This document shows, in pieces, positions 8,053-10,045 of a stretch of 64,000 nucleotides of DNA. Within the stretch, counting starts at the first letter, position 1. Each line of letters begins with the position of its first letter. The translations under genes were made by a program, and so were the position numbers. The stretch is taken from NCBI RefSeq assembly GCF_006345805.1, contig NC_043000.1, forward strand, positions 100,626,001 to 100,690,000, written 5' to 3'. The notes under the pieces are model-generated. The model worked only from the letters and a program-made list of their open reading frames with translations, made no database searches and was not told the DNA's origin. This stretch comes from Octopus sinensis (taxonomy: Eukaryota).

Positions 8053-8589
8053 CCCTTCTGATACCAATTCATCTGTGGTTGCTTTTGGTTCTATGAAACA
8101 AACTTCCTGCTTTAATATGATCTAGATTAAAAACCTTCCATCGAAATTTTATGCAAATTTAAGTTTCATTCATCAACTTAATATGACAATAATTCTGCTT
8201 AACACTTCGTTATTTTCAGAACTAATTTAAACAAATGTAGTGAGGAATAATTCATGAGCTGCATGCAGAACAGAGGAAGTCCAAACAATAACGTATCTCT
8301 TCGTTATCAGTAGTTTTTGGCCAGTTCAAGCGTGTGCATTCGATCGTTGTTGCTTTTCGTCTTCGGAGAACGTCTCCACATCACCTCAGGCTATATGCGC
8401 TCATATCACACGTGATTCGGGACTTTGAGACAGTGCGGTGTTTCGACCTTATTGTGCATCTCCTCAGTCAAAACAATCGCACCGAGCTGATGTATCTAGC
8501 AAGAGTACAGGCTCTTATTTACAGAAATCAGCAAACAAATTATTTGCTGATGCGTGGTGTGTTTCAATAGAAATACGGTAACGAAAGGG
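8053..8589. mobile_element. piggyBac-like MITE interrupted by a ~310-bp insert
   Basis: TTAA|CCCTTCTGATACC ... GGTAACGAAAGGG imperfect TIRs; the right TTAA is degenerate. Confidence 0.55.
8423..8473 (-). ncRNA. Type I hammerhead ribozyme
   Basis: Minus strand: UUUUGA CUGAGGA GAU-gcacaauaag-GUC GAAA CA-ccgcac-UG UC UCAAAG; full core, 6-bp stem I (one GU pair), 3-bp stem II, short stem III, GUC cleavage triplet. Confidence 0.8.
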
Positions 8590-9461: not shown

Positions 9462-10045
9462 CGACGAGCTGGTAGAAACGTTAGCACGCCGGGCGAAATG
9501 CTTATTGGTATTTCGTCTGCCGGTACGTTCTGAGTTGAAATTCTGCCGAGATCGATTTTGCCTTTCATCCTCTCGGGGTCGATAAATTTAGTACCAGTTA
9601 CGCACTGGAATCGATGTAATCGACTTAATCCGTCTGTCTGTCCTTGTTTATCTTCTCTGTGTTTAGCTCCTTGTGGGTAGTAAAGAAATAGGTATTTCGT
9701 GTACAGTTACGTTCTGAGTTCAAATTCCGCCGAGGTCGACTTTGCCTTTCATCCTTTCGCGGTCGATTAAATAAGTACTGGTTACGCACTAGGGTCGATA
9801 TAATCGACTTAATCCGTTTGTCTGTCCTTGTTTGTCCTCTCTGTGTTTAGCCCCTTGTGGGTAGTAAAGAAATAGGTATTTCGTCAGTTTTTAAGCTCTG
9901 AGTTCAAATTCCGCCGAGGTCAGCTTTGCCTTTCATTTATTTATTTTTTTCGGGATCAGTGAAATAAGTACCAGTCAAATACTGGAGTCGTTCTAGCCAA
10001 CAGCCTCCTCCCACGAAATATCAGACTTTGTGCCTTTAGCAGAAA
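9462..10045 (+). mobile_element. SINE family B multimer: one head followed by three ~183-bp internal units
   Basis: GTATTTCGT...TTCTGAGTT unit restarts at about 9508, 9692 and 9875. Confidence 0.88.

Follow-up and report, generated by a model that had tools for sequence, protein, structure and literature searches.

A hammerhead-bearing insert within a MITE

The stretch of DNA examined here (the window, 64,000 nt in length) carries on its minus strand a retrozyme-type insert that interrupts a MITE (Table 1). The insert is 314 nt long and 5′-truncated, and its 3′ end corresponds to the second (tail) site of the two at which members of its family tend to finish. An earlier note, made from the letters of the window, had delimited the unit as 8243..8553; our mapping moved these bounds to 8246-8559, leaving three bases (8243-8245) between the left part of the MITE and the insert. 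The unit had been described as non-coding, and we found no open reading frame of at least 120 aa across the insert.

The disrupted element had been taken for a piggyBac-like MITE, and this was confirmed. It belongs to a multi-copy family (810 candidates in the genome, 40 of which were scored) with short terminal inverted repeats and TTAA flanks, TTAA being the target of piggyBac-like elements. MITE copies without the insert carry the junction hexamer once. The near-direct repeats GTAGTG and GTGGTG, said to bound the insert, were upheld in part: GTGGTG matches the target hexamer at five of six letters, but it matches the element's own sequence at five of six letters as well. As the right hexamer is equally near to element and target, a true target duplication at this locus is not established, and GTGGTG may be a duplication, microhomology or both. 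Across the family, target duplications were no commoner than in shuffles (16 of 57 loci, shuffled mean 25) in a scan that is weak on old AT-rich flanks.

The motif on the minus strand was read directly as a type I hammerhead, with the CUGAGGA, GAAA and GUC elements and the cut site exactly as previously proposed. It displays the CUGANGA/GAAA/UH core and three helices, with helix I open. Stem I was found to comprise seven pairs, two of them G-U, rather than six. The hairpin reported at about 8527-8551 is real, and a second was identified at 8498-8519 (Table 1). Elsewhere in the window, another repeat, presumably SINE-like, is present at 9504-9995 as three copies of 184 nt in tandem, and broken reverse transcriptase frames, which we take to be LINE-like, lie on the minus strand at 671-2646.

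Table 1. Features at the insertion locus (positions are those of the window).
Feature	Position	Strand	Remarks
MITE left part	8053..8242	+	follows TTAA 8049-8052; ends in target hexamer GTAGTG 8237-8242
Retrozyme-type insert	8246..8559	-	covers 0.95 of the circularly permuted unit (~335 nt), from profile column 55 round to 37
~40-nt Penelope-type tail	8246..8286	-	between the family's two favoured 3′ ends (column 336 at ~8286, column 39 just past 8246)
Type I hammerhead motif	8422..8474	-	direct reading and Rfam Hammerhead_1 match
Hammerhead stem I	8474-8468/8428-8422	-	7 pairs, two of them G-U
Hammerhead core CUGAGGA	8467-8461	-	read directly
Hammerhead stem II	8460-8458/8447-8445	-	
Hammerhead core GAAA	8444-8441	-	read directly
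Hammerhead helix III	8440-8438/8433-8431	-	2 of 3 pairs; one mismatch (C.C)
Hammerhead GUC triplet	8431-8429	-	predicted cut between 8429 and 8428
Hairpin 2	8498..8519	-	columns 95-103 with 108-116; absent from the earlier note
Hairpin 1	8527..8551	-	complementary across the family, columns 63-73 with 77-87
GTGGTG	8554..8559	+	possible target duplication and/or 5′-junction microhomology
MITE right end	8560..8589	+	terminal AAAGGG; flanking TTAA decayed to TTGT

An old family of circularly permuted tandem copies

A genome search with the unit gave 359 candidates, and 46 matches were obtained from the 40 that were scored, the other copies being 67-92% identical over the matched stretch. Using other copies, or just the 3′ part, as query added more loci. 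In alignments, a short linker connects the end of the window unit to its own start, and the unit is thus circularly permuted with a period of ~335-338 nt (338 profile columns), within the range of non-LTR retrozymes (about 150-400 nt, type I hammerhead, non-coding). Inserts were mapped onto the circular unit by wrap-around alignment. The final count comprised 120 segments scoring at least 50 in 80 loci, after removal of duplicate fetches and the near-identical L079 and L092, and a second set comprised 109 segments scoring at least 80 in 82 loci; both are samples of the best-scoring copies, short of the whole family. Among the 109 segments, 51 were longer than 1.05 units and 10 reached at least 1.9 units, with a maximum of 2.56. 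Two full ribozyme stretches were present in 12 of 105 segments, so that head-to-tail tandems occur in the family, although not in the window copy. Multi-unit copies were also recovered when the 3′ part was the sole query, and no long tandem source array was seen among the loci studied. The genome search thus bore out the proposal of a mobile hammerhead family with other copies and head-to-tail multimers. On the other hand, the window copy is not the ribozyme-defined monomer it was thought to be: it starts ~130 nt ahead of the cut, finishes at the Penelope-type tail end and contains one ribozyme.

Successive passes within an insert resemble each other as much as copies from different loci do (0.717 and 0.712, respectively), which points to a single old burst followed by decay. 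The copies form a star-like set with about 0.18 substitutions per site per copy. Exact matches to a 30-place ribozyme pattern numbered just four in the 2.7-Gb genome, and no young family copies were found in our searches. The family is likely extinct. A Penelope and LINE expansion has been reported at a distance of 0.2 (PMC13282606; here and below, statements on published systems refer to the available portions of the cited articles) and, given an octopus host, the depth of the family would match it. The window copy is an ordinary, old and decayed fossil of a known class, the animal retrozymes.

A second hammerhead family, unrelated in appearance (L097, L100-L103, L150-L172), was represented by 2781 candidates and scored above the Rfam cut-off. 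It consists of ~230-nt pieces with the ribozyme at the start and TA microsatellites at the end, and includes one 431-nt tandem with 96% identity and one 1.2-kb inverted repeat with 99% identity; the flanks retrieved showed no Penelope ORF. This family looks younger than that of the window and may be a better test case. In addition, a lone hammerhead near the Rfam consensus (L098:1501-1547, 41.9 bits), unmatched by the other ribozyme loci, lies close to a LINE-like ORF fragment.

State of the ribozyme in the window and in the family

In well-conserved form, the ribozyme of the family has a seven-pair stem I with a distal extension past a 2-nt bulge, and three pairs each in stems II and III. Over 30 copies, 80% of helix cells were paired, compared to 35-41% when the helices were slid. 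Covariation, which the earlier note proposed to look for among copies, did not exceed that in shuffles over these 30 copies, an outcome expected for neutral decay from one source, and RNAalifold gave no consensus structure for the family. The helices therefore rest on complementarity and the known core. Loop III varies in the manner of decayed CpG. Helix III is self-complementary in well-kept copies, a dimer-type design; hammerheads with a short helix III need a partner copy (PMC4209133).

Among copies found by their 3′ end, the core was kept better than matched columns (0.885 vs 0.796, P=0.003). Stem II, proximal stem I and both hairpins were also better kept, while distal stem I and stem III were not. 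Core conservation is not fully explained by pure decay after insertion. Selection among the source lineages, or mutation context, may lie behind it; we do not take it as a sign that the ribozyme functions at present.

The window copy had been said to carry an intact hammerhead, and one could suppose that it is still active, as a ribozyme or a source of circular RNA, and possibly kept by the host. Every core base is indeed present, a state found in only 29 of the 95 units that cover the ribozyme, and stems I and II are fully paired. The insert also occurs in two runs of DNA (X2 and X3), each carrying the label of another organism; X2 comes from the same study as the best-matching run. Against this, 29 intact cores in 95 make such a core common by chance, and there is damage outside the core. 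Helix III contains the C.C mismatch, distal stem I retains one of four pairs, and 11 family columns are deleted directly past the ribozyme. Rfam Hammerhead_1 matched 8423-8473 (minus strand) over the full model, but with 23.2 bits, under the gathering score of 34 (E of 0.019 within a 3-kb search). The helix III self-duplex reaches −2.8 kcal/mol, compared to −17.5 (L028) and −13.7 kcal/mol in the two best-kept copies tested, and neither a second ribozyme in the insert nor a second family copy in the window is available as a partner. The fold of the whole unit was no better than shuffles (z −0.63). The copy is ~20% diverged from the column majority of the family, a level equal to that of its siblings (0.806 vs a median of 0.791). 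Present activity is, in our judgement, most improbable, and with one ribozyme and this degree of divergence the copy is not a likely source of circular RNA.

ViennaRNA assigned near-zero probability to the ribozyme helices of the window copy; as stems I and II were also near zero in the five sibling copies scored, these values do not discriminate. No RNA run was listed among those containing the insert. The contigs whose RNA label was a guess (X4, X8) covered sibling or MITE copies only in short, diverged pieces; such contigs cannot show ends or circles, and these results have no bearing on expression.

Insertion ends follow a two-site pattern

The 3′ ends of the 120 segments were concentrated at two sites ~40 nt apart. 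Site 1 (median column 336) accounted for 32 segments and site 2 (median column 39) for 41, together 73 of 120, and a single segment ended at the cut. The sites lie ~150 and ~190 nt 3′ of the cut, respectively. Both pile-ups were significant in the first 74 segments (p 2e-9 and 2e-18), in which 5′ ends were scattered with no significant pile-up. In the 120-segment set, 9 of the 31 starts near the ribozyme cut fell at it, which is not a significant pile-up either (p 0.15). According to this end map, the ends of inserts are not set by the ribozyme cut. DNA immediately past the 3′ ends was 72% A+T, which fits AT-rich targets and is a weak sign in an AT-rich genome.

Many inserts carried an adjacent inverted arm. 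We counted 33 head-to-head pairs, in 32 of the 80 loci, compared to one tail-to-tail pair. The tail was present on one arm only in nine inverted pairs and on both arms in none. The weaker arms finished at the two sites in 20 of the 33 cases, with 3.8 expected. Query bias should affect both ends alike, and the weaker arms, which were not chosen by the query, also end at these sites; the 3′ pile-up is thus not a product of such bias. Of the 73 canonically ended segments, 59 pass through the cut site. As most of them read through it, a cut, linear monomer did not serve as the template, which was a closed circle or an uncut multimer.

Truncation and inversion at the 5′ side occur with LINEs too, and no Penelope partner was identified for the family. 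On these grounds, one could consider spread of a SINE-like RNA through a LINE enzyme, or copying at the DNA level from a tandem array. The 3′ ends, on the contrary, have neither poly-A nor a common LINE tail, and DNA-level copying would not produce fixed 3′ ends together with free 5′ ends. Moreover, only Penelope elements are described as combining two discrete 3′ ends 40 nt apart with inverted pairs in which one arm bears the tail (PMC11167929). We regard both routes as highly improbable.

According to Craig et al., Penelope insertions feature truncation at the 5′ side, an inverted arm next to the copy and a tail of 30-40 bp at one of the ends (PMC8557442). Frangieh et al. showed in vitro that two internal initiation sites, located downstream of the hammerhead, delimit this tail, and that insertion does not need ribozyme cleavage (PMC11167929). 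With two 3′ ends 30-40 nt apart, variable 5′ truncation and a head-to-head inverted arm, the family fits this two-site initiation geometry.

Search for an attached Penelope ORF

If an element is autonomous, its longer copies reach the endonuclease ORF upstream. The unit could be a pseudo-LTR from an autonomous Penelope-like element that is now extinct, its copies being 5′-truncated, partial-tandem leftovers. Every insertion signature is of the Penelope type, the genome contains several Penelope-like families, and our queries were the unit itself with flanks of 1.5 kb, a design that favours unit-only copies. Nevertheless, when 23 Penelope protein pieces were compared with 95 family loci, no attached ORF was found. 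The sole strong match was to a GIY-YIG piece in L006, which lies on the opposite strand more than 500 nt away and was discounted as an insertion of its own. Sequence upstream of the unit in long copies is a further unit, not an ORF, and the copies wrap into more units, up to 2.56, even with the 3′-part query. No shared flank adjacent to the upstream junction was present among 78 segments, and no clear codon-like periodicity, a sign of an ORF remnant, was observed. A pseudo-LTR origin therefore appears unlikely.

In the reverse direction, the family profile matched neither the 20 GIY-YIG loci nor the 30 from a second Penelope-like family; in 14 extended loci it matched only the family locus itself and none of the other 13. 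This search covered a sample of Penelope-like or candidate loci, short of the whole genome and taken without specific regard to a Penelope/Poseidon-type family. As no Penelope ORF is attached in the loci examined, the label of retrozyme, favoured in the earlier note, fits better than that of solo pLTR. The unit behaves as a non-autonomous passenger, that is, as a member of the retrozyme class as outlined in the accessible parts of PMC7229834 and a preprint (10.64898/2026.07.22.740005).

With respect to Penelope-like elements themselves, we noticed two near-intact ORFs of 780 and 883 codons (L139 (L050) and L140 (L049), respectively) with reverse transcriptase, GIY-YIG and CxxC linker; many near-identical GIY-YIG matches of this type suggest recent activity. 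The second Penelope-like family (L060, L173-L202) is very abundant (8019 candidates) and divergent from the first. Read against PMC8557442, its linker appears to resemble that of the Hydra clade, and no hammerhead was seen in the first 1.5 kb downstream. Short minimal hammerhead-like motifs were present near other Penelope-like pieces, in L061 downstream of a GIY-YIG match and in L186 and L200.

Proposed origin of the insert

Taking these results into account, we consider it likely that the insert is a decayed copy, with one ribozyme, of a ~335-nt non-coding tandem unit, and that a Penelope-like retrotransposon protein acting in trans reverse-transcribed this unit. The RNA template was probably a circle or else an uncut multimer. 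We predict that the insert is inactive today. The Penelope protein would nick AT-rich DNA, here the MITE. Copying would begin at one of the two internal sites downstream of the cut, proceed backwards through the ribozyme and halt at a variable point. Inserts of at least ~1.7 units would hold two ribozymes and could release unit-length RNA, probably cutting as dimers via the self-complementary helix III; the threshold, which is that for a full cut-to-cut monomer in a tail-ended insert, is arithmetic from the column map. Shorter inserts, such as the window copy at 0.95 unit, would be dead ends. Having one ribozyme and a damaged helix III, the window copy cannot release a circle alone. We infer the action of the Penelope enzyme in trans, the circular or multimeric template and cleavage as dimers, as well as a role of the hairpins as a protein-binding site, with hairpin 1 as a candidate element.

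We also put forward, tentatively, a more specific possibility. The family may be the fossil record of a Penelope reverse transcriptase circling a small circular ribozyme RNA, using the same two tail sites, reading past the ligated cut for up to 2.5 turns, and recruited by two hairpins that lie just downstream of the sites only in a circle or multimer. If true, this would supply direct evidence from the genome that retrozymes and Penelope elements are partners, as has long been proposed, and would define a protein-free, cis-acting substrate of ~335 nt for a Penelope-class enzyme.

Comparison with known systems

Our literature searches found no description of an octopus or cephalopod retrozyme family; Repbase, Dfam and supplements may hold this family under another name. 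The main text of the 2020 study on metazoan retrozymes, as far as available, does not name cephalopods (PMC7229834), the portion of the giant squid paper at hand tabulates 235 Hammerhead_1 matches without analysis, and the words ‘ribozyme’ and ‘retrozyme’ are absent from the accessible text of an octopus repeat paper (PMC13282606).

The closest counterparts are the metazoan non-LTR retrozymes, with units of 350-390 nt in mussel and 331-353 nt in axolotl (Cervera and de la Pena 2020, PMC7229834). These share with our family the type I hammerhead, a non-coding unit of similar length (~335 nt here), head-to-tail repeats and Penelope-like elements in the same genome. Unlike them, the family described here looks extinct, its arrays were seen up to 2.56 units, and it is known here from DNA alone. 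Small mobile type I hammerhead repeats of invertebrates also include the schistosome W-elements and Sm/Sj-alpha repeats, which form large transcribed arrays with tested activity (PMC8490949); we set them beside the present family by description. The similarity to Penelope pseudo-LTRs (PMC8557442, PMC11167929, PMC4209133) extends to a hammerhead with a short palindromic helix III, initiation downstream of the ribozyme, 5′ truncation, head-to-head inversion and an optional tail of 30-40 nt at one end. In contrast to the pseudo-LTRs, the ORF is absent and the unit is preceded by another unit.

How animal retrozymes return to the genome is still a matter of proposal. Penelope elements were put forward as candidates in 2020 (PMC7229834), and Li, Clavereau and Pollet 2026 add a link from co-occurrence and pLTR phylogeny in vertebrates, with insertion ends unmapped in the part of the preprint covered (10.64898/2026.07.22.740005). 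Here, the inverted arms and the 3′ ends at two sites make the link, and no partner matching the unit in sequence was found. The value of our analysis lies in this family-level end map, through which a retrozyme-type unit is linked to Penelope two-site initiation by where its dispersed copies end; the same end-mapping is applicable to living retrozyme families.
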